Shown here one piece after another: positions 7,085-31,500 of a DNA stretch of 32,000 bases (the stretch's first letter is position 1; each line of letters opens with the position of its first letter). Made by a program: the position numbers and the translations under genes. The stretch comes from Candidatus Iainarchaeum sp. GTDB taxonomy: Archaea > Iainarchaeota > Iainarchaeia > Iainarchaeales > JAZDEL01. The DNA lies in the NCBI GenBank assembly GCA_043808785.1, contig JAZDEL010000010.1, positions 150,001 to 182,000 on the forward strand, read 5' to 3'. Below the pieces are notes generated by a model. It was not told the origin of the DNA, did not search any database, and worked only from the letters and a program-made list of their open reading frames with translations.

Positions 7085-10000
7085 CTAAATTACGTCGCCC
7101 GTAACCGCATCCACGGCAACCCTTCTCTCCCTGCCCTTCATTTCGAGGCTTGCGAACCATACAGGCCTGTAAAGTTCATCCACGCGCCTTATCATTATGT
7201 GCGGCCAGAGCTTGCGCAGCACCGCGGGAATGCTCTCTCGCGGGAACCTCTCGCGCTCCTTTGCCGCTGCCTGCACGCGCGCGAAAGGCAGTTTGTTCAG
7301 CGAACCCAGCAGTTCGTGCATTTCATTGGGCGGCAAATCAAACTTCTTCTTTAGGAAATAAATGCCCTTCCCGCTCTTCTTGTCCTTCTCCGCCCCCGCA
7401 ATTCCGCGCTCGGCAAGCCTTGCAAGCACGCGCTTTGCCTTTGCCTCGTCGAACTCGGAAAGCCGCGCAACCTCCGCTGCGGAAAGCCTGCGGTTTGCAA
7501 GATGCGTTGCCGCAACTATATCGTCCCTTCCCATGTCAAACGCGTCACCAAGGCCTTTCGATTCCACGAACTTGCCGCCGCCGAAGTGCAAAAACTCCCC
7601 TGTCCTTGAATCGATGAACGCCTCGCGCGCAAGGAACTCCCCCCTTTTTGTCGGGATATCATACCCAACTCTCCAAACCGTAACATGCCTCATCTGCAGT
7701 CCCGTTATCCTTTCCTCATCGCCGAGAATGCCGAGCATTTTCCTTTTCCTCACGCGGTCAACAGCAGCCCTCGCATTTGCCTCGTTAATCCTCTGGGGTA
7801 AGGAGAGAAGTTCCGTGCTCTCAAGTGCCTCGTCGCGCAGGCTCCCCCTTCCTATGCCCGCACCCTTAGCGGCGGCTTCCGCCTCTTCCCCTGCTTCAGC
7901 TTCCTCGCCCTTATCAAGCGCCTCCTCCGCTTCCTCTTCTTCCTCCTTATCCTCATAACCCGCAACGCTTGCCCCTTCCTCCGAAACCTCGAACCCGCGC
8001 CTGCCGAGTTCCTTCATTAGTTCCTCTGCAGCAACCGCTGTCTTGTATTTGGAATTAAGCGTCCTCAAAACCTGCTCTATGGTTTCCTTATCCAGTTTCC
8101 CCGCCCTGTTAATGTCCTCGGCAACCATTTCAGCCGCAACATCCATTACCTGCGCATCGTCCATGCTCTCGTTCATCTGGTTTGTTTCCGCGTCACGCCC
8201 TTCGTGCTGCGACATTCTCGGCCTGATGCTCATTATGAAGGCGCGTGTTGTTTCCTCGCTCCTGTCTCCCGTAAGCGCAACGCCCACAGGCAGTGTCTTT
8301 ATGAAAGTGGGGCGCTTGTACTGCCCCGGCACTATGGTCGGGATGCGCCTGTACACTGCCTTTATGTCATCATCGAAAACAAGCTTGTGCGATATCACAA
8401 CATCCAGCTGGCTCAGCACCTTTGTGTCAATCGCACTCGGCTGCTGTGTCGCAAACACAAGCGAACAGCCGGGCCTTCTTCCCTGCTTCACATATTCCAC
8501 AAGCCCGCTTGTTGCAGGCGTCTTTGTGTTGCCGCTCGGTATAAGCGTGTGCGCCTCATCAATGAAAAGCCATGTGGGCGGAACCTCAAGTTCAAGCAGT
8601 TCGTCCAAATCCTGCTTCCTGAATTTCTGCGCGGCCTCCTTGCGCGTCGAAATCTTCCTCGCTGCAAGCAGCCTGCGCGCAAGTATTCCTATCACAAGCG
8701 CGGTAACAACATCGTCAAGGAAACTCGTGTCAAGCACTGTCAGCTGCCCCGCGCGAGAAAGCTCGCTCAGCGGCGTTCCCTTCTCATCAAATATCCCCCA
8801 TGATTTCGCAGCCTCGAACCTGCTCACAAGCGCGCGTATGGAATCCTGCTTGTATCCGCGCTCCTTTGAATTCAGCTCGCCATCATTCTCAAGGCATTCC
8901 ACTATGTCGTCAAGGGAGTACCGTGTTTCCTTGCCTCTGACTTCCTTCCCTGTTTCCATTTTCCTGTACCCTTTCTCCACTTTCTTCAGCATCTTGTCGA
9001 GCAGCAGGCCCGAGGGCGAAAACCTTTCAATCCCGAATGTGAGGCACCAGTCGTCCGCGGTAAGCAGCGATGGCTGCATGCTGAACCCTTCATTGTAAGT
9101 GCTCTTCGGAACCTCGCCCTTCTTCCCCGCGGGGATGAAAACCTTGATATTGTCCAGGCCCCCTGGTTTCATGCCCCATTCCGCAAGCCTTTTCACTTCC
9201 CTGTCCTCCTTGTTCGGGAACTTCATGGACCAGAACACGCCCACGGGGTCCACAACCACGACGCCGACATTCCTGTTCTTGAGCGCTATTTCCTCAGCAA
9301 GCACGCCCATTACATAGCTCTTTCCCGAGCCGCGTGCACCGCAGACGAAAACCACGTGCGGGTTCAGGCTGTCGAGGAAAATTTCCGCGTCCCTGTATTC
9401 CTGCTCGTTCACGCGCCCTATGCGCAGCGCCCCTTCGTAGCCGTACTTTTTCCACACAGTCTTTTTCATCCCTATGAAAACGTTCTTCTTTTCCGCGTCA
9501 CCCAAAAACCCGAGCCTCACCCCTCCCTGGTGCTCGGGCGTTCTGTCGGCCTTCCCCGCTTCCTCGGCCTTCTTCAGGATTGTGTCCTTTATTGCGTTCC
9601 TTTTTTCAGAGCGCATTTTTTCGAACTCCTCGCTTGCGTCCGCGCTTAATCCAGGTACCTTTCCCTGCAAAAGTTCCGGCTCCGCGCCTGTTTCATTTTC
9701 CCCGCCGGTTCCGGTTTCCCGCCCCTCATCCGCGCCGTGCTCGAGCCAGCCCCAGTCCTCATCCTGCTCCTTAACGCCCTCCTCCGTGGTTCCTATTTCC
9801 TTATCCAGGCTTGCGGAAGCGGATTCCGGTTCCTCTTCTTCGGCCTCATCTTCGGCGGTTTCCTCTTCTTCCGCACCCTCTTCGGCTTCCCCCTCACCAG
9901 TTGTTTCCTCTTCGTCATCATCTTCGGTTTCCGCACCCTCTCCCCCATCTTCTTGCTCCTTATTCCTCTTGCCAGCGCCCTTTTTCCCGCCTTCAAAAGT

Positions 10001-10378
10001 GTCATATTCTTTATCGGGTTCTTCGTCTTCCCCGCCATCATCGCTATCATCATCGCCCTCATCATCCTCTTCTTTCGCCTGTTTTTTCGCAGCCCTCTTC
10101 CTTTCCTTGCGCGGCTTTTTCGGCTTTGCAGGTGCGCGCTTTTTCCCGCCTTCGGGCTTGGTTTCCGCAGCAACCGCTTCGGCGCTGTCGCCTGCGGAAT
10201 CGGCAGGCTCGCCCCCGGGCTTCCCCTTCCCTTCCTCAGGGCCGAGCATTTCGTCGAATATGTCGGGCGCGCTTCCCTTTACGTGCCTCACCCTTTCCCC
10301 TTCGGAAATCGGGCGTGCTGCCTCCTCGGCATCTTCCGCAATTTCCGCCTCGCCCCTATGCTCCCCGTCTTTCGGCAT
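7085..10378 (-). CDS. HerA/FtsK-superfamily (DUF87/COG0433-like) P-loop ATPase with a polyacidic N-terminal extension and a C-terminal wHTH-like extension
   Basis: Walker A is VFVCGARGSGKSY (DNA about 9315-9345) and Walker B is WLFIDEAHTLIP (about 8545-8580). The first roughly 300 aa are D/E-rich low complexity with a basic patch (KKRAPAKPKKPRKERKRAAKKQAK). The C-terminal roughly 300 aa contain a second acidic stretch and an HTH-like segment (LSAAEVARLSEFDEAKAKRVLARLAERGI). Confidence 0.8.
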   Translation of the reverse strand: MPKDGEHRGEAEIAEDAEEAARPISEGERVRHVKGSAPDIFDEMLGPEEGKGKPGGEPADSAGDSAEAVAAETKPEGGKKRAPAKPKKPRKERKRAAKKQAKEEDDEGDDDSDDGGEDEEPDKEYDTFEGGKKGAGKRNKEQEDGGEGAETEDDDEEETTGEGEAEEGAEEEETAEDEAEEEEPESASASLDKEIGTTEEGVKEQDEDWGWLEHGADEGRETGTGGENETGAEPELLQGKVPGLSADASEEFEKMRSEKRNAIKDTILKKAEEAGKADRTPEHQGGVRLGFLGDAEKKNVFIGMKKTVWKKYGYEGALRIGRVNEQEYRDAEIFLDSLNPHVVFVCGARGSGKSYVMGVLAEEIALKNRNVGVVVVDPVGVFWSMKFPNKEDREVKRLAEWGMKPGGLDNIKVFIPAGKKGEVPKSTYNEGFSMQPSLLTADDWCLTFGIERFSPSGLLLDKMLKKVEKGYRKMETGKEVRGKETRYSLDDIVECLENDGELNSKERGYKQDSIRALVSRFEAAKSWGIFDEKGTPLSELSRAGQLTVLDTSFLDDVVTALVIGILARRLLAARKISTRKEAAQKFRKQDLDELLELEVPPTWLFIDEAHTLIPSGNTKTPATSGLVEYVKQGRRPGCSLVFATQQPSAIDTKVLSQLDVVISHKLVFDDDIKAVYRRIPTIVPGQYKRPTFIKTLPVGVALTGDRSEETTRAFIMSIRPRMSQHEGRDAETNQMNESMDDAQVMDVAAEMVAEDINRAGKLDKETIEQVLRTLNSKYKTAVAAEELMKELGRRGFEVSEEGASVAGYEDKEEEEEAEEALDKGEEAEAGEEAEAAAKGAGIGRGSLRDEALESTELLSLPQRINEANARAAVDRVRKRKMLGILGDEERITGLQMRHVTVWRVGYDIPTKRGEFLAREAFIDSRTGEFLHFGGGKFVESKGLGDAFDMGRDDIVAATHLANRRLSAAEVARLSEFDEAKAKRVLARLAERGIAGAEKDKKSGKGIYFLKKKFDLPPNEMHELLGSLNKLPFARVQAAAKERERFPRESIPAVLRKLWPHIMIRRVDELYRPVWFASLEMKGRERRVAVDAVTGDVI

Positions 10379-10428: not shown

Positions 10429-10571
10429 CAGCCTTTTCTTATAAAGAAAAGGCTGGCGAAAAGAACACAAGGCACGGCTGGCGAAAAGAAGGATTTTGCT
10501 TCGCAAAATCACGCTGCCCGCCGCAGCGGGCTATTTCTTTCGCAAACCTTTCTTTTCCAAAGAAAGGTTTG
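10429..10571. repeat. structured palindrome-bounded repeat element, copy A, abutting the tRNA-Ala 3' end
   Basis: The left terminal hairpin is CAGCCTTTTCTT-ATA-AAGAAAAGGCTG (10429-10455) and the right one is CAAACCTTTCTTT-TCC-AAAGAAAGGTTTG (10543-10571). Internal modules are CACAAGGCACGG (10466-10477), GATTTTGC-TTC-GCAAAATC (10492-10510) followed by ACGCTGC, and the GC hairpin GCCCGC-CGCA-GCGGGC (10516-10531). These modules recur at 27202-27276, 30169-30297 and 30343-30517. Confidence 0.75.
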
Positions 10572-10731
10572 TGGACTCGGGGGGATTTGAACCCCCGGCC
10601 TCTCCGATTCTCGCAGACGCCTGCAATCATGTGGTGCAGTCCCGTTCCGCCGAAGGCGGAACCGTACGCGGCACCGGCGATCGCAAGCGCCGTTGCGAAC
10701 GGAGCGCTCTGCCAGGCTGAGCTACGAGCCC
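10572..10731 (-). tRNA. tRNA-Ala(CGC) with an 86-nt intron at position 37/38
   Basis: I folded this by hand from the reverse complement. The acceptor stem is GGGCTCG/CGAGTCC and includes the G3:U70 alanine identity pair. The D arm is GCTC..GAGC. The anticodon stem is CTCCG/CGGAG with loop TTCGCA|...|T. The T arm is GGGGG-TTCAAAT-CCCCC and the discriminator is A. No CCA is encoded. The intron spans 10608-10693. Confidence 0.85.
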
Positions 10732-24894: not shown

Positions 24895-25500
24895 GTGTCG
24901 CCCCTCAGGTCAATTGCGCTGAGTTTTGCCCTTTCCACCATAATTTTCCTTTATCTTCTTTTAGGGCAGGGCTGGAGGAATGAGGGTTTCCTTTGGGTGA
25001 ATTTTCTATATTTCCTGGTCGTTAACTTTGCCCTCATTTTCTCCCTGCAGCCTAAAAAAACCGAACGCGCATTCTGGGAAAGTATTTATGCAGTTTTCGT
25101 TTTTGGAATTTTTTCATTTATGCTGCTGTATGTGTTCTCAATATTAGTCTCAATGCCTGACCCCCACTTTGCAGACCTCGCATACCTTATTACTGTCTGG
25201 TATATCGACTTTCTGGCTGTTTTTTTCGTATTTATCAGCGTAAGGAAAAGGCTCTTTCTGGACTCGGATGCAGAGGAGTTGTCAAAAACAGGCATTCGGC
25301 CCCTTGCAGTGTGGATGTTTTTATATTTCTCTTTTTTATCGGTATTTTATGCCATTATTATTTCACTCCCATTGCATTATTTGTTGCCGAGCCTCAGCGG
25401 CTTTGAAAAGGGAATGGTCGCCTATTTCAGTTTCGCTATAATCTTCGGCCTGCTGTTCCTCTACTACGTGCGCAGGGAGCAGCTGAAAAACAGGGGCTAG
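24895..25500 (+). CDS. hypothetical multi-pass membrane protein, visibly AT-rich
   Basis: This is a 201-aa ORF with a GTG start and about 6 hydrophobic segments. I recognise no motif. Confidence 0.5.
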   Translation: MSPLRSIALSFALSTIIFLYLLLGQGWRNEGFLWVNFLYFLVVNFALIFSLQPKKTERAFWESIYAVFVFGIFSFMLLYVFSILVSMPDPHFADLAYLITVWYIDFLAVFFVFISVRKRLFLDSDAEELSKTGIRPLAVWMFLYFSFLSVFYAIIISLPLHYLLPSLSGFEKGMVAYFSFAIIFGLLFLYYVRREQLKNRG

Positions 25501-25537
25501 TGCGGAAGCACAGTTTGAAAAAACAAAAAAATCAGAA

Positions 25538-25561
25538 GAAGGGTTCGTTTCCGAACCCTTC
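25538..25561. terminator. bidirectional hairpin plus T-tract between convergent genes
   Basis: The hairpin is GAAGGGTTCG-TTTC-CGAACCCTTC. It is flanked by an A-run upstream and by TTTTATTTTTTTATTTT downstream. It lies between the 24895-25500 (+) gene and ftsZ (-). Confidence 0.6.
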
Positions 25562-25607
25562 GCGAATTTTATTTTTTTATTTTGGTTTTCCCGCTTGATT
25601 TTCGATT

Positions 25608-26702
25608 TTACAGGAAGTCCAGGTCGAGGCCGCCTTTCTTTGCGCCCGTCCTTGTCCTCGAGGAGTAGCCGCTGCTGCTGTCCTCGCGGGCAGGCCCCTT
25701 GATGTACGGGCTGTGCACTCCCGTGAAGATTGTTATGACTTCCATCTTGTTCTCGAATGTAGGGTCAACCCTTGCGCCCCATATGACCGAGGCTTTCGGG
25801 TCGATTTTCTCCGTCAGCATTTCGCCGACTGCGTTCGCTTCCCCGAGTGTGAGTTCCGGACCTCCGGTTATGTGTATGAGCGCGCCTGTTGCGCCCGCTA
25901 TATCCACATCGAGCAGTGCGTTCTTGAGCGTGTCCTCCACAACCTCATTCACCTTGTCCACGCTCTTGCTTTCGCCGACAGCAATTACGCTGAGCCCCTT
26001 GTTGCTCATTATTGACCTTACATCCGCATAGTCCAGGTTTATGAGCGAGGGCTGTGTGATTGTTTCCGTTATGCCGCGCACCGTGCGCGCTATGACCTCG
26101 TCCGCGACCTTGAACGCGTCCTGTATCGGGAGGTTAGGGACAAGTTCCACAAGCCTGTTGTTGTCTATAACAACGACCGTGTCCGTTACCTGCCTCAGTG
26201 CCTCTATTCCTTCCTCCGCCTTTATGAGCCTCGCTTTCTCCAAAGCGAACGGGTATGTGACAATCGCAATAACGATTGCGCCCTGCTCCTTCGCGATTTC
26301 CGCTATGATTGGTGCGGAGCCTGTGCCTGTTCCGCCGCCCATTCCCGCGGATATGAACAGCATATCAACGCCGTCCATTACCTCTTCGAGCGCGCTCCTG
26401 CTGACTTCAGCGGACTTCGCGCCTATCTCCGGGTATCCGCCCGCACCCAGGCCGCGGGTTACGCTTTTGCCTATGAGTATCTTTGTGAGCTCGTCGTTGA
26501 TTATTGCCAGGTGCTGCTTGTCGGTGTTTACCCCAACCAGCTGTGCGCCTGAAATTCCCATGTTTGCAAGGCGGTTCACGGCGTTGCATCCCGCCCCCCC
26601 TGTTCCTATTACCATTATCTTCGGGCTGCCGAATTCCTCAAGCTTGTCCTCTGCCTTGTCGCCTGTTTTGGAAACGGCTTCCTCGACGATTGATTTCATC
26701 AT
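25608..26702 (-). CDS. ftsZ: cell division protein FtsZ
   Basis: It contains GTGGAGCNAVNRL and the tubulin signature GMGGGTGTGSAP. The C-terminal tail is variable. Confidence 0.95.
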   Translation of the reverse strand: MMKSIVEEAVSKTGDKAEDKLEEFGSPKIMVIGTGGAGCNAVNRLANMGISGAQLVGVNTDKQHLAIINDELTKILIGKSVTRGLGAGGYPEIGAKSAEVSRSALEEVMDGVDMLFISAGMGGGTGTGSAPIIAEIAKEQGAIVIAIVTYPFALEKARLIKAEEGIEALRQVTDTVVVIDNNRLVELVPNLPIQDAFKVADEVIARTVRGITETITQPSLINLDYADVRSIMSNKGLSVIAVGESKSVDKVNEVVEDTLKNALLDVDIAGATGALIHITGGPELTLGEANAVGEMLTEKIDPKASVIWGARVDPTFENKMEVITIFTGVHSPYIKGPAREDSSSGYSSRTRTGAKKGGLDLDFL

Positions 26703-26915: not shown

Positions 26916-26936
26916 TCTTGTATTCACAGGTATTAC

Positions 26937-27201
<265 letters not shown>

Positions 27202-27202
<1 letters not shown>

Positions 27203-27276
27203 AAACCTTTCTTTTCAAAAGAAAGGTTTGCGAAAGAAAGGATTTTTGCTTCGCAAAAATCACGCTGCTTATTTGC
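27202..27276. repeat. structured repeat element, copy B (short form), directly following the SRP RNA
   Basis: It begins with the hairpin CAAACCTTTCTTTT-C-AAAAGAAAGGTTTG (27202-27230), then CGAAAGAAAG. The hairpin GATTTTTGC-TTC-GCAAAAATC (27241-27261) follows, then ACGCTGC and TTATTTGC. Confidence 0.75.
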
Positions 27277-28245: not shown

Positions 28246-28317
28246 GCTCCGGTAGCTTAGTGGTAGAGCATTCGGCTGTTAACCGAAGGGTCGCAGGTTC
28301 GACTCCTGCCCGGGGCG
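28246..28317 (+). tRNA. tRNA-Asn(GTT), no intron
   Basis: I folded this by hand. The acceptor stem is GCTCCGG/CCGGGGC. The D arm is GCTT-AGTGGTA-GAGC. The anticodon arm is TTCGG-CTGTTAA-CCGAA. The T arm is GCAGG-TTCGACT-CCTGC and the discriminator is G. Confidence 0.92.
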
Positions 28318-28320
28318 CTT

Positions 28321-29812: not shown

Positions 29813-29865
29813 CCCCCTTGCATGTAATTTCAGCCTTTTTCCCGCTTTACCATATGTGCGCAAAC

Positions 29866-30100
29866 GATATAAAACTCTATGTGTCCCGTTCCCCCGCGGG
29901 TTCGGTTCCTGCACAAACCGCACGGAAACCCGTGCGCCTGTATTTTCGGGCGTGACCGGTTCCTGTGGAACCAATATAAGCCCCGCACGCCCCTGTTCGG
30001 GCATGTTTGGTTCCTGCGGAAACCATACAGCCCCCATATGCCCGCATTTTCGGGGTGCAGGGTTCCTGCGGAAACCATATAAAACTCTATGGGTTAAAAT
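29866..30100. repeat. about 4.5 degenerate tandem repeats of 51-54 bp, each carrying a GGTTCC-N-GGAA(A)CC dyad
   Basis: GGTTCCTG starts at 29904, 29958, 30009 and 30061. Three units carry the compact dyad: GGTTCCTGTGGAACC once and GGTTCCTGCGGAAACC twice. The unit at 29904 has the half-sites separated by a 13-nt insertion. Four of the five copies also carry an ATATAA/ATACAG-like box, and the three full units carry a TT(TT)CGGG box. The flanking partial copies share ATATAAAACTCTATG (29867-29881 and 30077-30091). Confidence 0.85.
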
Positions 30101-30104: not shown

Positions 30105-30130
30105 CAGGGCATTTTGCCCGTGCCTCCCAT

Positions 30131-30342
30131 GCGGGGGTGGCGGAGTGGTCTAACGCGGCAGCCTGCTACAACTTTTTCTTAAAAAGAAAAAGTTGGCAAA
30201 AAGAACAGTCCGCGCTTGTGCGCGGACAACTGCCCGCCTTCGGCGGGCTGTTTCTTTTGTCAACTTTTCTTTTTTAAAGAAAAGTTGAGTTGCAGCGAGC
30301 TGTTGCCCTCTGGGCGCACGAGTTCGAATCTCGTCCCCCGCG
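30131..30342 (+). tRNA. tRNA-Ser(GCT), class II, with a 129-nt intron at position 37/38
   Basis: I folded this by hand. The acceptor stem is GCGGGGG/CCCCCGC and the D arm is GCG-GAGTGGTCTAA-CGC. The anticodon stem is GCAGC/GCTGT with loop CTGCTA|intron|A. The long variable arm is TGCCCTCTGGGCGC and the T arm is ACGAG-TTCGAAT-CTCGT. The discriminator is G. The hBHBh' motif is canonical: central helix CTGC/GCAG, 3-nt bulges TA|C and CG|A, outer helix AACT/AGTT. Confidence 0.88.
30169..30297 (+). repeat. tRNA-Ser intron, equal to structured repeat element copy C
   Basis: Hairpin CAACTTTTTCTT-AAA-AAGAAAAAGTTG (30169-30195) is followed by GCAAAAAGAACA. Next come hairpin GTCCGCGC-TTGT-GCGCGGAC (30208-30227), a GC hairpin with stem GCCCGC/GCGGGC (30232-30248), TGTTTCTTTTGT, and hairpin CAACTTTTCTTT-TTT-AAAGAAAAGTTG (30261-30287). 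The module order is the same as in copy A. Confidence 0.8.
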
Positions 30343-30517
30343 TTAAACCTTTTCGGAGCGTGGGTTTTCGCTTGGGCTCAAACCCACTTCCAAAAGGTTT
30401 GCGAAAAACGTTAGCCTGCAAAAGGCTTGCGAAAGAAACACAAGGCACGGTTGGAGAAAAACGTTAGCCTGCAAAAAGAAGGGTTTCCGCTTCGCGGAAA
30501 TCACGCCGCTTATTTGC
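30343..30517. repeat. structured repeat element, copy D, directly following tRNA-Ser
   Basis: An extended hairpin AAACCTTTT...AAAAGGTTTG (30345-30401) has an inner stem GTGGGTTT/AAACCCAC. There is a 21-nt internal direct repeat GAAAAACGTTAGCCTGCAAAA (30403-30423 and 30456-30476). Other modules are CACAAGGCACGG (30439-30450), the hairpin GGTTTCCGC-TTC-GCGGAAATC (30482-30502), then ACGCCGC and TTATTTGC. Confidence 0.75.
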
Positions 30518-30522
30518 GGTTT

Positions 30523-31500
30523 TCAGAACAGCATGCCCTGCACGGCGTTGAATATGTAGCCCGTTATTATTACCCCCAGTGCCACGGTTGCGAAGAAAAT
30601 AACCACAAGTCTCGGTTTCATCACGCGCTTCAGCATTATCGCCTCGGGCAAACTTAACGCCGCGGTTGCCATCATGAACGCGAGCGCAGTGCCAAGAGGA
30701 ATTCCCTTTTCAAAAAGCGCCACTGCTATGGGAACAACAGCAGCGCAGTTCGCGTAAAGTGGCACGCCTATAAGCACCGCGAGCGGCACTGTGAATATTC
30801 CCCCGCCCTGCACGATTGCGTTTATTGCCTCCTCCGGAACAAAGCCGTGTATCAGCGCCCCGATTGCAACTCCCGCAATAACCCAGAGCCATATTTTTTT
30901 TACAATTGAAACCCCCTCCTTCAGGCCGAAGCCCGCCCTCTCGCGCAGGGTGTTGTACCTCGCCTTCCACTCCGCAGATTTCCCCTCTCCCGCAAACTCC
31001 CGCTCGACATATTTCTCAAGCCCCATCCTGCCGAGGATAATTCCCCCTAAAGTGCCCATAATTATTCCGCCGAGCACGTAAAGCGCGGTAACCTCCCAGC
31101 CGAAGAAGCCGAGCATTATCACGGCAACATATTCATTCACAAGCGGCGAGGTTATGAGGAATGAAAAATTCACCCCAAGCGGCACGCCCGCCTCCATGAA
31201 CCCTATGAAAACGGGTATCGAGGAGCAGGAGCAGAACGGCGTTACCGCACCGAAAATCGCGGCAATCAGGTTTCCCAACCCCGCGCGCCTGCGGGAAAGA
31301 ATTTCCCTTACCCTGTGCTTCGGCAGGTATGTGCGCAGGAACCCCACAATCGCAATCATCACGAAAAGCAGGATAAGTATTTTTATGGAATCATAAATAA
31401 GGAAATTCAGCGATTCCGCGAGCGTGCCACCGCTTTCGCCGAAAACCGCGCGAACGACAAAATCCGCAAAAGCCTGAATAGGGTAAAACAAGTCAACCAT
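30523..31500 (-). CDS. COG0701/ArsP-like permease
   Basis: It is a multi-pass membrane protein carrying the family-typical TPFCSCSSIP motif. Confidence 0.75.
   Translation of the reverse strand: MVDLFYPIQAFADFVVRAVFGESGGTLAESLNFLIYDSIKILILLFVMIAIVGFLRTYLPKHRVREILSRRRAGLGNLIAAIFGAVTPFCSCSSIPVFIGFMEAGVPLGVNFSFLITSPLVNEYVAVIMLGFFGWEVTALYVLGGIIMGTLGGIILGRMGLEKYVEREFAGEGKSAEWKARYNTLRERAGFGLKEGVSIVKKIWLWVIAGVAIGALIHGFVPEEAINAIVQGGGIFTVPLAVLIGVPLYANCAAVVPIAVALFEKGIPLGTALAFMMATAALSLPEAIMLKRVMKPRLVVIFFATVALGVIITGYIFNAVQGMLF

Follow-up and report, generated by a model that had tools for sequence, protein, structure and literature searches.

Does the long intron of an archaeal tRNA-Ser(GCU) gene owe its existence to a dispersed palindromic repeat, and is such a gene still expressed in one piece? 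The question is raised by a 32,000-nucleotide stretch of the genome of Candidatus Iainarchaeum sp. (contig JAZDEL010000010.1, positions 150,001 to 182,000), which is termed the window and to which all positions refer. An earlier note, made from the sequence alone, had described positions 30169-30297 as an intron built like the palindrome-bounded element that abuts a tRNA-Ala gene. It had proposed that the intron was gained by insertion of this element, or that the element spread via the splicing and ligation machinery, and, more speculatively, that the gene is expressed as two halves which are joined afterwards. Our analysis indicates that we are probably dealing with a conventional, inherited intron that hosts a lineage-specific repeat, and neither with a recent intron gain nor with a split gene.

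The gene and the two sides of its bulge-helix-bulge (BHB) motif are located as follows:

30131 to 30342, plus strand: tRNA-Ser(GCU) gene with 5' exon 30131-30168, intron 30169-30297 (129 nt) and 3' exon 30298-30342 (ARAGORN intron mode, Rfam tRNA, spliced product, orthologues)
30163 to 30174, plus strand: 5' side of the BHB (sequence reading and constrained fold)
30287 to 30298, plus strand: 3' side of the BHB (sequence reading and constrained fold)

The gene was missed by ARAGORN in its default mode and, when the whole window was searched, by Rfam at the gathering threshold. With introns allowed, ARAGORN calls a tRNA-Ser(gct) at 30130-30343. The Rfam tRNA model scores 40.1 bits over 30131-30342, the gathering score being 29, in a search of this region with permissive filters and the insert skipped. 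The tRNA predictors, on whose verdict the earlier note had made its reading depend, thus accept the gene. Cutting out 30169-30297 yields an 83-nt tRNA-Ser(GCT), which is accepted by ARAGORN without intron mode. By hand reading, it has the acceptor stem GCGGGGG/CCCCCGC and a D arm. The anticodon GCU occupies 30165-67, the anticodon stem pairs 30158-62 with 30299-303, the variable arm comprises 14 nt (30304-30317), the T arm reads ACGAG-TTCGAAT-CTCGT and the discriminator G is 30342. The excision product is a normal class II tRNA-Ser.

The intron sits at position 37/38 in a canonical hBHBh' context, as had been claimed, and the geometry can be read directly in the sequence. The 4-bp central helix pairs CUGC (30163-66) with GCAG (30292-95). 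It is flanked by opposite 3-nt bulges, UA/C at 30167-69 and CG/A at 30296-98, with the predicted cuts after the second bulge base, that is after 30168 and after 30297. The outer helix h' pairs AACUU (30170-74) with GAGUU (30287-91). Constraining the precursor to cloverleaf and BHB gives a fold of -102 kcal/mol versus -108 kcal/mol for the unconstrained minimum free energy, and the z-score of the precursor fold is -8. The unconstrained centroid shows the BHB in a shifted register. Boundaries of a 119-nt intron, as drawn by ARAGORN, were rejected in favor of the BHB boundaries because they imply an implausible 24-nt variable region. A TATA box (ttaaaatataa) is found at about -35 upstream of the whole gene. 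The 129-nt intron contains neither a TGATGA motif indicative of C/D boxes nor an open reading frame (ORF), and in an Rfam search of the tRNA-Ser region up to E≤10 tRNA was the sole family that reached threshold. Judged by its predicted splice sites, the intron is a member of the canonical BHB class, that is, of the archaeal tRNA introns which are cut by EndA and joined by RtcB, and with which it shares the 37/38 site, the bulge geometry and the conserved position. It differs from them in its length (129 nt versus the usual ~12-30 nt), in an interior made of two dispersed-repeat copies and in the terminator-like T5 and T6 runs that it holds.

The interior of the intron consists of two repeat units in opposite orientation, which were recognized by a covariance model (CM) termed R1, and of the segment between them:

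30169 to 30210, plus strand: intron repeat unit 1, 'D' orientation (CM R1, 55.0 bits, E 2.4e-11; strict structural finder)
30208 to 30248, plus strand: two G+C hairpins between the units (sequence, fold)
30246 to 30287, minus strand: intron repeat unit 2, 'U' orientation on the tRNA strand (CM R1, 57.9 bits, E 4.8e-12)

Unit 1 starts with a palindrome (30169-30195), which is followed by GCAAAAAGAACA (30196-30207). Within it, the pyrimidine arm Y1, CTTTTTCTT (30172-80), the loop AAA and the purine arm R1, AAGAAAAAG (30184-92), are succeeded by a further purine tract R2, AAAAAGAA (30198-30205), which lies inside GCAAAAAGAACA and mirrors R1 in 8 of 8 positions. In unit 2, TGTTTCTTTTGT (30249-60) precedes the second palindrome (30261-87), and the order on the tRNA strand is Y2 TTTCTTTT (30251-58), Y1' CTTTTCTTT (30264-72), the loop TTT and R' AAAGAAAAG (30276-84). 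The G+C hairpins in between, GTCCGCGC-TTGT-GCGCGGAC (30208-27) and GCCCGCCTTCGGCGGGC (30232-48; GCCCGCC-TTC-GGCGGGC), correspond to the small hairpin found after R2 in other copies. The tail AGTTGCAGCG (30288-97) supplies BHB strands and is the sole part of the intron outside the repeat units. The predicted fold has both units of one and the same transcript paired into a single rod. This order of parts, the same as in the tRNA-Ala element, had been described correctly, and the sense strand does carry the T5 (30173-77) and T6 (30270-75) tracts that had been seen in the palindromes.

CM R1 was built from 15 gene-flank copies of other genomes, with none from the window and none from an intron, and was run with filters off. 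It has exactly five full-length matches in the 32 kb, the two intron units and the first three of the following features, which are listed together with the genes and the trailer they relate to:

10529 to 10570, minus strand: match after tRNA-Ala (60.7 bits, E 1.1e-12), part of a 'D' repeat unit, 10529 to 10573, that starts at the tRNA-Ala(CGC) 3' end (CM R1, strict finder)
27203 to 27244, plus strand: match after the signal recognition particle (SRP) RNA (58.5 bits, E 4e-12), part of a 'D' repeat unit, 27203 to 27261 including its small hairpin, that starts at the SRP RNA 3' end (CM R1, strict finder)
10429 to 10470, plus strand: inverted partner in the tRNA-Ala element (45.9 bits, E 4e-9)
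10571 to 10731, minus strand: tRNA-Ala(CGC) gene with a ~89-nt intron (ARAGORN intron mode)
26935 to 27204: SRP RNA (Rfam Archaea_SRP, 130 bits)
30343 to 30525, plus strand: tRNA-Ser trailer with degenerate copies of the family (weak CM R1 matches, repeat finding)

The best further independent match, in the tRNA-Ser trailer, reaches 17.9 bits. A strict structural finder, which requires the hairpin and the mirror tract, gives 5 matches in the window versus 0 in 40 dinucleotide shuffles. Moreover, BLAST aligns intron unit 1 with the tRNA-Asn trailer of the related locus L105 (89.6% over 48 nt), and intron unit 2 with a tRNA-Cys leader in an Iainarchaeum metagenome-assembled genome (MAG) (L046:7412-7448; 94.6% over 37 nt). 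The assignment of the intron and the intergenic tRNA-Ala element to one dispersed family has therefore withstood the significance check that the earlier note had called for. The independent model hits both, with E-values of 5e-12 to 2e-11 in the intron and of 1e-12 to 4e-9 overall, and the shuffles give no match. The coordinates also agree with the statement that the palindromes begin exactly at the 5' splice site and at the tRNA-Ala 3' end.

The tRNA-Ala element runs on the minus strand from 10573 down to 10429, begins at the tRNA 3' end and has the same order of parts as the intron. Its units, 10529-10573 and 10429-10470, form a 145-bp inverted pair, the latter lying upstream of the ordinary TATA box ttaatatataaatt of a HerA-like gene (7085-10378, minus strand). 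The SRP RNA trailer unit ends in the small hairpin GATTTTTGC-TTCG-CAAAAATC (27241-61). The tRNA-Ser trailer contains a palindrome with a large inserted loop (30345-30404; CM R1 12.5 bits), GCGAAA-type linkers at 30400-30443 and 30466-30485 (the 17.9-bit match being at 30412-30443) and the small hairpin GGTTTCCGC-TTCG-CGGAAATC (~30482-30502), and it extends to the stop (30523) of a convergent ArsP permease gene (Pfam ArsP_1). The ~89-nt intron of tRNA-Ala(CGC) itself is without the palindromic module. Its GC hairpin has the 13-mer CCGCCTTCGGCGG in common with the tRNA-Ser intron hairpin (30234-46), and the tRNA-Ala(CGC) orthologue of L234 (20824-20896) is intronless.

All units follow one design. 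A hairpin with a pyrimidine 5' arm Y1 (e.g., CTTTTCTTT) and a purine 3' arm R1 (AAAGAAAAG) is followed, 2-5 nt later, by a second purine tract R2 and then usually by a small hairpin, with loops of 1-3 nt and linkers of 2-5 nt. R2 is always the mirror image of R1 and never a direct copy of it, as seen in the window:

Intron unit 1: R1 AAGAAAAAG, R2 AAAAAGAA
Intron unit 2: R1 AAAGAAAAG, R2 AAAAGAAA
tRNA-Ala partner unit: R1 AAGAAAAGG, R2 GAAAAGAA
SRP RNA trailer unit and first tRNA-Ala unit: R1 AAAGAAAGG, R2 GAAAGAAA

In 14 distinct copies from other genomes, 111 of 112 cells agree with the mirror rule, including all 21 that contain a G. This level was reached in 0 of 2000 shuffles, and slid registers gave 0 G matches. 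For the five window copies the agreement is 40/40 cells. Hairpins that had not been selected by any search pattern yielded 8 exact mirror and 0 direct-repeat cases, which fall into the run-length classes (2,4), (2,5), (3,4) and (3,5), and one mirror case in L232 covers 14-15 nt with two asymmetric G positions. The palindrome covaries as well, with compensatory changes in 6 of 12 pairs and 97.6% of cells paired. Furthermore, Y2 matches R' in a parallel register (TTTCTTTT over AAAGAAAA), including C over G. Mismatch counts that might tell which strand folds (16 G.U versus 10 A.C) are noisy.

The Y-R-R module is, as far as its predicted strands go, of class II purine-motif intrastrand triplex design, and its complementary strand has the Y-Y-R pyrimidine motif (T.A-T with one C+.G-C). 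The module may well form a triplex. In the same qualified sense, the bacterial PIT/BoxC/TMECO repeats (Hoyne et al., 2000; Holder et al., 2015, PMC4666352) have in it a counterpart that is archaeal and A/T-rich. Both share the succession of Y stem, loop, R stem, loop and mirrored R stem, both are present in many intergenic copies, some of them closely spaced inverted pairs, and for neither is an associated transposase known. The bacterial repeats form triplexes in vitro and are sometimes found as inverted pairs (PMC4666352). The hallmarks of such repeats are found in the module, namely three Y-R-R blocks of which the third mirrors the second, stems of at least 8 and short loops. The TMECO consensus CCCTCNCCC-N3-6-GGGNGAGGG-N3-GGGNGAGGG, in contrast, is not matched. 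Because its stems are A/T-rich (CTTTTCTTT / AAAGAAAAG / AAAAGAAA) instead of G/C-rich (CCCTCNCCC / GGGNGAGGG), the module is of this kind but stands outside the BoxC/TMECO sequence family. It further differs in being archaeal (DPANN), in the extra small hairpin behind it, in its strict gene orientation, whereas TMECO is without orientation bias, and in its positions directly at the ends of tRNA and SRP RNA genes and within tRNA introns. In related loci no known RNA family of Rfam matches the module, and our literature searches found no description of it in archaea. The prokaryotic cases in a 2026 review of RNA triple helices are confined to riboswitches and group II introns (PMC13541005). A self-cleaving ribozyme was rejected as an explanation, since the two orientations are reverse complements and cannot be the same RNA.

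The Y-R-R mirror motif was also seen in a quite different setting. High-G+C contigs contain a ~600-bp element with ~80-bp terminal inverted repeats (L114:2030-2640; also L115, L119, L126, L164, L183, L196, L199, L209-L216 and L223). These repeats hold the motif in the form CTACTTTTCTTT-gccgccgc-AAAGAAAAGTAG-GCAAAAGAAA-gcggc. The bases that follow the third tract are complementary to the hairpin loop, which gives a covarying pseudoknot with the loop/tail pairs gccgc/gcggc, ccttgat/atcaagg, tcgcc/ggcga and others. BLAST finds the element in up to at least 40 places per replicon in Paraburkholderia caribensis and P. largidicola, all of them unannotated. Among the matches listed from a metagenome scan with a degenerate pattern, the bacterial Paraburkholderia-type repeat is dominant.

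Where else does the archaeal module occur? Scanning species-representative genomes with AAAGGYTTGCGAAAGAAA gave 103 matches, mostly single chance matches in bacteria, and about a dozen informative archaeal loci. These copies are from the MAG 'archaeon SO_2017_SWC_19', two Iainarchaeum MAGs and other uncultured archaea of 31-51% G+C. Eight tRNA genes of SO_2017_SWC_19 have the module immediately upstream, with a palindrome that ends 0-6 nt before the tRNA +1, and one tRNA-Pro is flanked by it on either side. In the closest relative found, L105, it comes right after the mature 3' ends of SRP RNA, tRNA-Asn and tRNA-Ser. Its start is 0-1 nt past the mature 3' end in these three genes as well as in the tRNA-Ala and SRP RNA of the window. 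Copies are also present after protein genes (L003, L024 and, in a simplified form, L109). In all 13 flanks the palindrome is gene-proximal and R2 distal (6/6 3' flanks, 7/7 5' flanks), and the intron copies have the 3'-flank orientation in six independent introns (Ser, Cys, Leu, Met twice, Gly). Modules in 37/38 introns begin at or beside the 5' splice site. Apart from the tRNA-Ser gene, the intron modules of relatives are in:

L046: tRNA-Cys(GCA)
L001: tRNA-Leu(CAA)
L070: tRNA-Met, both introns
L145: tRNA-Gly(GCC)

The module is absent from most other Diapherotrites loci that were fetched by FtsZ synteny, and is thus a lineage-specific expansion and no universal signal. Relatives without it have plain T5-T8 runs directly after their tRNAs. 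The 3'-flank modules have, as their sequences read, T3CT3, T3CT4 or T5CT2 within 10 nt of the mature end, so that the T-rich arm stands where relatives have a plain oligo-T terminator.

Three of these loci deserve a separate description. In the 31% G+C MAG locus L070 (5780-6010, minus strand), the tRNA-Met(CAT)-like gene, which was not called by ARAGORN and Rfam, has introns at 37/38 and in the T-loop region with a module in each. The module of the second intron is a different variant (CTTTTCTCTT / AGAGAAAAG / AAAAGAGAA) that still obeys the mirror rule. In L109 (11250-11400, minus strand), two tandem simplified modules (AAGCCTTTT-AAA-AAAAGGCTT-GCGAAAAA) directly follow the stop of the M50 peptidase gene, and therefore a related element is present at a protein gene's 3' end even in a lineage whose tRNA-Ser intron is module-free. 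Finally, in L168 (1-160) a module at 23-59 lies between 22-nt direct repeats, TCTGTGCAGGGATGGCGGAGTG, which consist of the leader and the first 17 nt of tRNA-Ser. A truncated tRNA 5' fragment and a module thus precede the intact gene, an arrangement that could be a footprint of how the module reaches or enters tRNA genes. Based on the BRE/TATA-like GCAAAAG-TTATTTCTTT upstream of the SO_2017_SWC_19 tRNAs, a role of the module as a tRNA promoter was considered and set aside, because copies of the opposite orientation would fire antisense into tRNA 3' ends and because the tRNAs of the window and of L105 have separate classical TATA boxes.

To trace the history of the tRNA-Ser intron, orthologous tRNA-Ser(GCU) genes were located by synteny and ordered by the FtsZ identity to the window:

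L105, FtsZ 90%: 37/38 intron with one full unit, two hairpins and a degenerate second unit; 3' end GTTGCAGCG
L232/L233, FtsZ 87%: 37/38 intron with a long-loop, pseudoknot-like version of the module; 3' end GTTGCAGTG
L109-111, FtsZ 85%: 37/38 intron of ~101 nt with an unrelated interior; 3' end TTGCAGCA
L240, FtsZ 83%: intronless

The introns of L105, L232 and L109-111 all follow CTGCTA and end in GTTGCAGYG or TTGCAGCA. Of the tail, the orthologues in L105 and L232 retain the core GTTGCAG, and L109 retains TTGCAG. The 38-nt 5' exon lies within a 39-nt BLAST match that is 100% identical to L109, and the orthologous stems show compensatory changes. Since three related lineages have the intron and the interior in L109-111 is unrelated, the intron is inherited while its interior turns over; to judge from these alignments, it is inherited within this subclade with a conserved BHB-forming end. 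The earlier note had suggested asking whether orthologous genes lack the intron. In L105, L232 and L109-111 the intron occupies the same site, which together with the window makes at least four sampled lineages, and the gene of the more distant L240 has none. Intron gain by insertion of the element is not borne out, as three lineages share the 37/38 site and the 3' end, one of them with an unrelated interior, and no target-site duplication is visible.

The module within the intron is old as well, because it is common to three lineages. Both L105 and L232 keep the first unit and intact exons; of the second palindrome, L105 has a degenerate form and L232 none. Unit 1 of the window intron (A2GA5 type) is closer to the L105 tRNA-Asn trailer than to the orthologous L105 intron unit, and the reverse complement of unit 2 is near-identical to that L105 intron unit. 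The segment of G+C hairpins likewise aligns better with its L105 counterpart as the reverse complement, and for the whole interior the reverse complement scores 88 versus 58 forward. An inversion of the segment between the two units, or an exchange of sequence among copies, may lie behind this, which is only suggestive because the element as a whole is close to a palindrome. In these comparisons, copies from introns and from flanks appear interchangeable.

ARAGORN in intron mode miscalls several of these genes, because it misplaces the long intron. By their sequences, L105:918-1102 and L232:935-1109, called Cys and Glu, are Ser(GCU), and L001:3407-3544, called Thr, is Leu(CAA). Automatic tRNA censuses of such genomes will be wrong, and annotators should be aware that default tRNA finders overlook such intron genes or misassign their anticodon.

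According to PMC4090602, Fujishima et al. (2010) described closely similar introns in different tRNA genes of Thermoproteales, an intron 'transposition' that points to DNA-level spread among tRNA genes. The two systems share sequence that is common to introns of different tRNA genes. They differ in that no other element is as common as our module in the leaders and trailers of tRNAs and in SRP RNA trailers, that the common part is a defined structured module in a DPANN lineage, and that the tRNA-Ser intron is inherited and not newly inserted.

The reading that we favor can be spelled out as follows. The tRNA-Ser gene would be transcribed as one precursor from the upstream TATA box. The two intron units would pair into a long rod that extends the outer helix h' of the BHB, and the precursor would be spliced there by the archaeal splicing endonuclease and ligase. 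The module would multiply where stable-RNA genes have sequence that is later removed (leaders, trailers and introns), and also behind some protein genes. Its intron copy would be a resident of a tolerated site that may exchange sequence with the flank copies, and would be neither the cause of the intron nor a signal for split expression. A terminator-like role at 3' ends, like the mode of spread, is something we infer. For the module as such, three readings were weighed. It could be a repeat that is expanding, and possibly mobile, and that persists in transcribed but discarded regions; a boundary element that acts like a terminator or insulator; or a device built on an RNA or DNA triplex. The strict orientation and the covariation across three strands speak for a function of some kind or for a targeted mechanism; the patchy distribution and the turnover of copies speak for a selfish or dispensable element.

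Several observations sit uneasily with this favored reading. Archaeal RNA polymerase should terminate prematurely, at least in part, at the T5 and T6 runs of the intron, which are a real oddity in an archaeal tRNA gene, as had been pointed out. If the module serves as a terminator at 3' ends, its presence right behind the 5' exon is a paradox. The exact placement at processing sites (tRNA +1, discriminator, 5' splice site) and the strict orientation suggest function or targeting, which a mere resident of a tolerated site would not account for. The three-strand covariation is kept in the orthologous introns (A2GA5 in the window, A3GA4 in L105 and L232), which could mean selection that acts on the intron copy itself. 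No transposase, target-site duplication or empty site was found, so that mobility is unsupported. Triplex formation is predicted from the sequence, and according to PMC4666352 purine-motif triplexes do not form in RNA. A tRNA-Asn(GTT) gene in L236 (8394-8541, minus strand), apparently with two introns, holds in the first of them the palindrome TTTTTTTTAAAAAAAA (T8A8). In archaea, eight consecutive T within a tRNA gene should terminate transcription strongly. As this palindrome is stronger still than those of tRNA-Ser, the group apparently tolerates T-runs in tRNA introns.

The inverted pair of units (119 nt in the intron, 145 nt after tRNA-Ala) might alternatively be a non-autonomous element, similar to a MITE (miniature inverted-repeat transposable element) or to the REPIN doublets of repetitive extragenic palindromes (REP), which inserted into a pre-existing intron and beside tRNAs. 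We regard this as possible but distinctly the less probable account, and have the same reservation about an enzyme that would move it by recognizing the hairpin or triplex end. The inverted-pair architecture is present twice in the window, with terminal inverted repeats as in a MITE (30169-30210(+)/30246-30287(-) and 10529-10573(-)/10429-10470(+)). The distribution among lineages is patchy and the copies differ: L105 has one after tRNA-Asn which the window lacks, and its second intron unit is degenerate. Moreover, the Y-R-R motif recurs in the ~80-bp terminal inverted repeats of the ~600-bp Paraburkholderia element with its up to at least 40 places per replicon, and the L168 module is enclosed by 22-nt direct repeats of tRNA sequence. 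A target-site duplication, however, is seen neither at the intron copy (flanks GCTA/CAAC...GTTG/AGTT) nor at the tRNA-Ala copy (TCCA/CAAA...GCTG/CAGG), and the repeat AGTTG AGTTG is confined to the right end of the intron. Where window and L105 differ in their copies, synteny is broken. No transposase is encoded nearby (Pfam search of the ten large ORFs of the window), single units are much commoner than pairs, an orientation bias relative to genes is unexpected for neutral insertions, and the intron copy is as old as the three lineages that share it. With REP, bacterial interspersed mosaic elements (BIME) and MITEs the module has in common short palindromic units at gene ends, often in inverted pairs as long hairpins, and a patchy, lineage-specific expansion. 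It differs by its third mirror-repeat strand, its location in tRNA introns, the lack of target-site duplications and of a GTAG/CGTC tag in any copy, and by the fact that neither a transposase nor a REP-associated tyrosine transposase (RAYT) was found, association with the latter not having been searched genome-wide.

Less probable again is that the module serves as a dedicated signal of stable-RNA genes, either a terminator or insulator or a processing or stability structure. The strict orientation with the palindrome gene-proximal in every one of the 13 flanks would fit this, as would the spacing of 0-6 nt from the tRNA +1 in the eight SO_2017_SWC_19 tRNAs and of 0-1 nt after the mature 3' ends in the window (tRNA-Ala, SRP RNA) and L105. 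Yet the module is dispensable, most related Diapherotrites loci having plain T-runs instead, and it is found after protein genes, too (L003, L024, L109). It has a similarly small chance that in the upstream orientation the U-rich/U-rich/A-rich transcript forms a U.A-U triple helix, whose A-rich 3' end is freed by RNase P as in MALAT1. To this the parallel match of Y2 and R' (TTTCTTTT over AAAGAAAA, C over G included) lends itself. The sense RNA of the 3'-flank and intron copies, though, carries the purine motif, which is not known to form in RNA (PMC4666352). That the module in introns stabilizes the excised intron or the BHB is equally doubtful, the covariation of all three strands in orthologous introns being in line with it. 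Indeed, modules upstream of tRNAs and the right intron unit resemble the triple helix of MALAT1 and its element for nuclear expression (ENE) in reading U-rich, U-rich, A-rich, in a first U-tract that fits the A-tract in parallel with one C over G and, for SO_2017_SWC_19, in an A-tract that ends at the tRNA 5' end, where MALAT1 has an RNase P-generated 3' end. The module differs in that its Hoogsteen strand is joined to the Watson-Crick strand by a short linker with no ENE stem-loop, in being prokaryotic, with RNA ends that are predicted, and in that the 3'-flank copies show the opposite strand. A long shot, finally, is the comprehensive version in which the module works as a nucleic-acid triplex that delimits stable-RNA genes in some DPANN archaea, locks an A-rich 3' end made by RNase P in a U.A-U/C+.G-C helix, protects the excised intron, as the right-hand unit of the tRNA-Ser intron would, and spreads between flanks and introns via the RNA processing and ligation machinery. 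If true, it would be a prokaryotic counterpart of the MALAT1/MEN-beta arrangement, and the excised tRNA-Ser intron would be exonuclease-resistant and possibly functional.

Expression of the gene in two halves is far less probable than any of these. A 5' half would end at the T5 run, a 3' half would start from a promoter in the intron with the second palindrome as TATA box, and both would anneal and be joined at the BHB. The sense-strand T5 and T6 runs, the T8A8 palindrome inside the L236 tRNA-Asn intron and the similarity of TTTTTTAAAG to ctttttaaattc upstream of tRNA-Asn could be taken in its favor. So could the mutual complementarity of the units, which is reminiscent of the leaders and trailers of Nanoarchaeum split tRNAs. 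The distance from an archaeal TATA box to the start is ~25 nt. The only TATA-like sequence of the intron (30270-79), however, is centered at ~30274, just 14 nt upstream of the BHB-forming strand (30288). Transcripts that start at the 3' exon would begin with a 5'-triphosphate and lack the BHB, and transcription from further upstream must read through T4 and T6. In addition, the TATA-like sequence is conserved in neither L105 nor L232, of which the former has a degenerate and the latter no second palindrome, with first unit and exons intact, and a normal promoter (ttaaaatataa, ~-35) precedes the whole gene. Conservation and geometry thus oppose the idea, which the earlier note had raised, and the units pair within one transcript. 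The split tRNAs of Nanoarchaeum equitans and Caldivirga maquilingensis likewise have complementary sequences after the 5' part and before the 3' part that meet at a BHB. The tRNA-Ser parts, in contrast, are contiguous, 129 nt apart and without a conserved internal promoter, there are orthologues without the second unit, and everything fits a single precursor. Virtually no weight is left for a chance likeness among A/T palindromes of low complexity, or for a pseudogene in decay that junk sequence has broken up. The A/T-rich, low-complexity character of the element and the failure of ARAGORN by default and of Rfam at its gathering threshold (whole window) to call the gene might suggest it. It is refuted by the E-values of 1e-11 to 1e-12 from the independent model, the shuffles without a match, the intact exons (100% match to L109) with compensatory stem changes and the exact BHB geometry.

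On our preferred reading of an inherited intron with a resident repeat, the locus joins archaeal tRNA introns, dispersed genomic repeats and sequences of the intrastrand-triplex type, which are usually treated apart. It offers a sequence-defined case in which the interior of an inherited intron is common to, and apparently exchanged with, the leaders and trailers of stable RNAs, and bears on how sequence is acquired and swapped by the introns of archaeal tRNAs. With it, triplex repeats of the PIT/BoxC type reach into the archaea, in an A/T-rich form whose strict gene orientation, unlike the situation in E. coli, makes a function testable. Candidate functions are termination or insulation, protection of 3' ends, and a recognition site for a mobilizing enzyme.

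The remaining content of the window includes tRNA-Asn (28246-28318) and ordinary housekeeping genes with Pfam matches to GlmS, GlmM, GuaA, FtsZ, M50 peptidase and ArsP permease. An exact look-up of the permease gave no record. The FtsZ protein shares 85-93% identity with proteins filed under Candidatus Diapherotrites, which places the organism with the DPANN archaea of the Diapherotrites/Iainarchaeota group. Upstream of tRNA-Ser, in a region common with a divergent minus-strand gene (29857-30094), a general repeat finder shows four ~52-nt copies, for which Tandem Repeats Finder reported nothing. Each copy comprises the hairpin GGTTCC-TGCG-GAAACC, a TATA-like ATATAA(A) and a GC hairpin ending in TTTTCGGG, and the copies resemble reiterated promoter-like units. 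Finally, the hairpin GAAGGGTTCG-TT-TCCGAACCCTTC at 25518-25581, between the convergent genes 24895-25500 (plus strand) and FtsZ (25608-26702, minus strand), is flanked by an A-rich and a T-rich run; its design is unlike that of the module and resembles a conventional bidirectional terminator.

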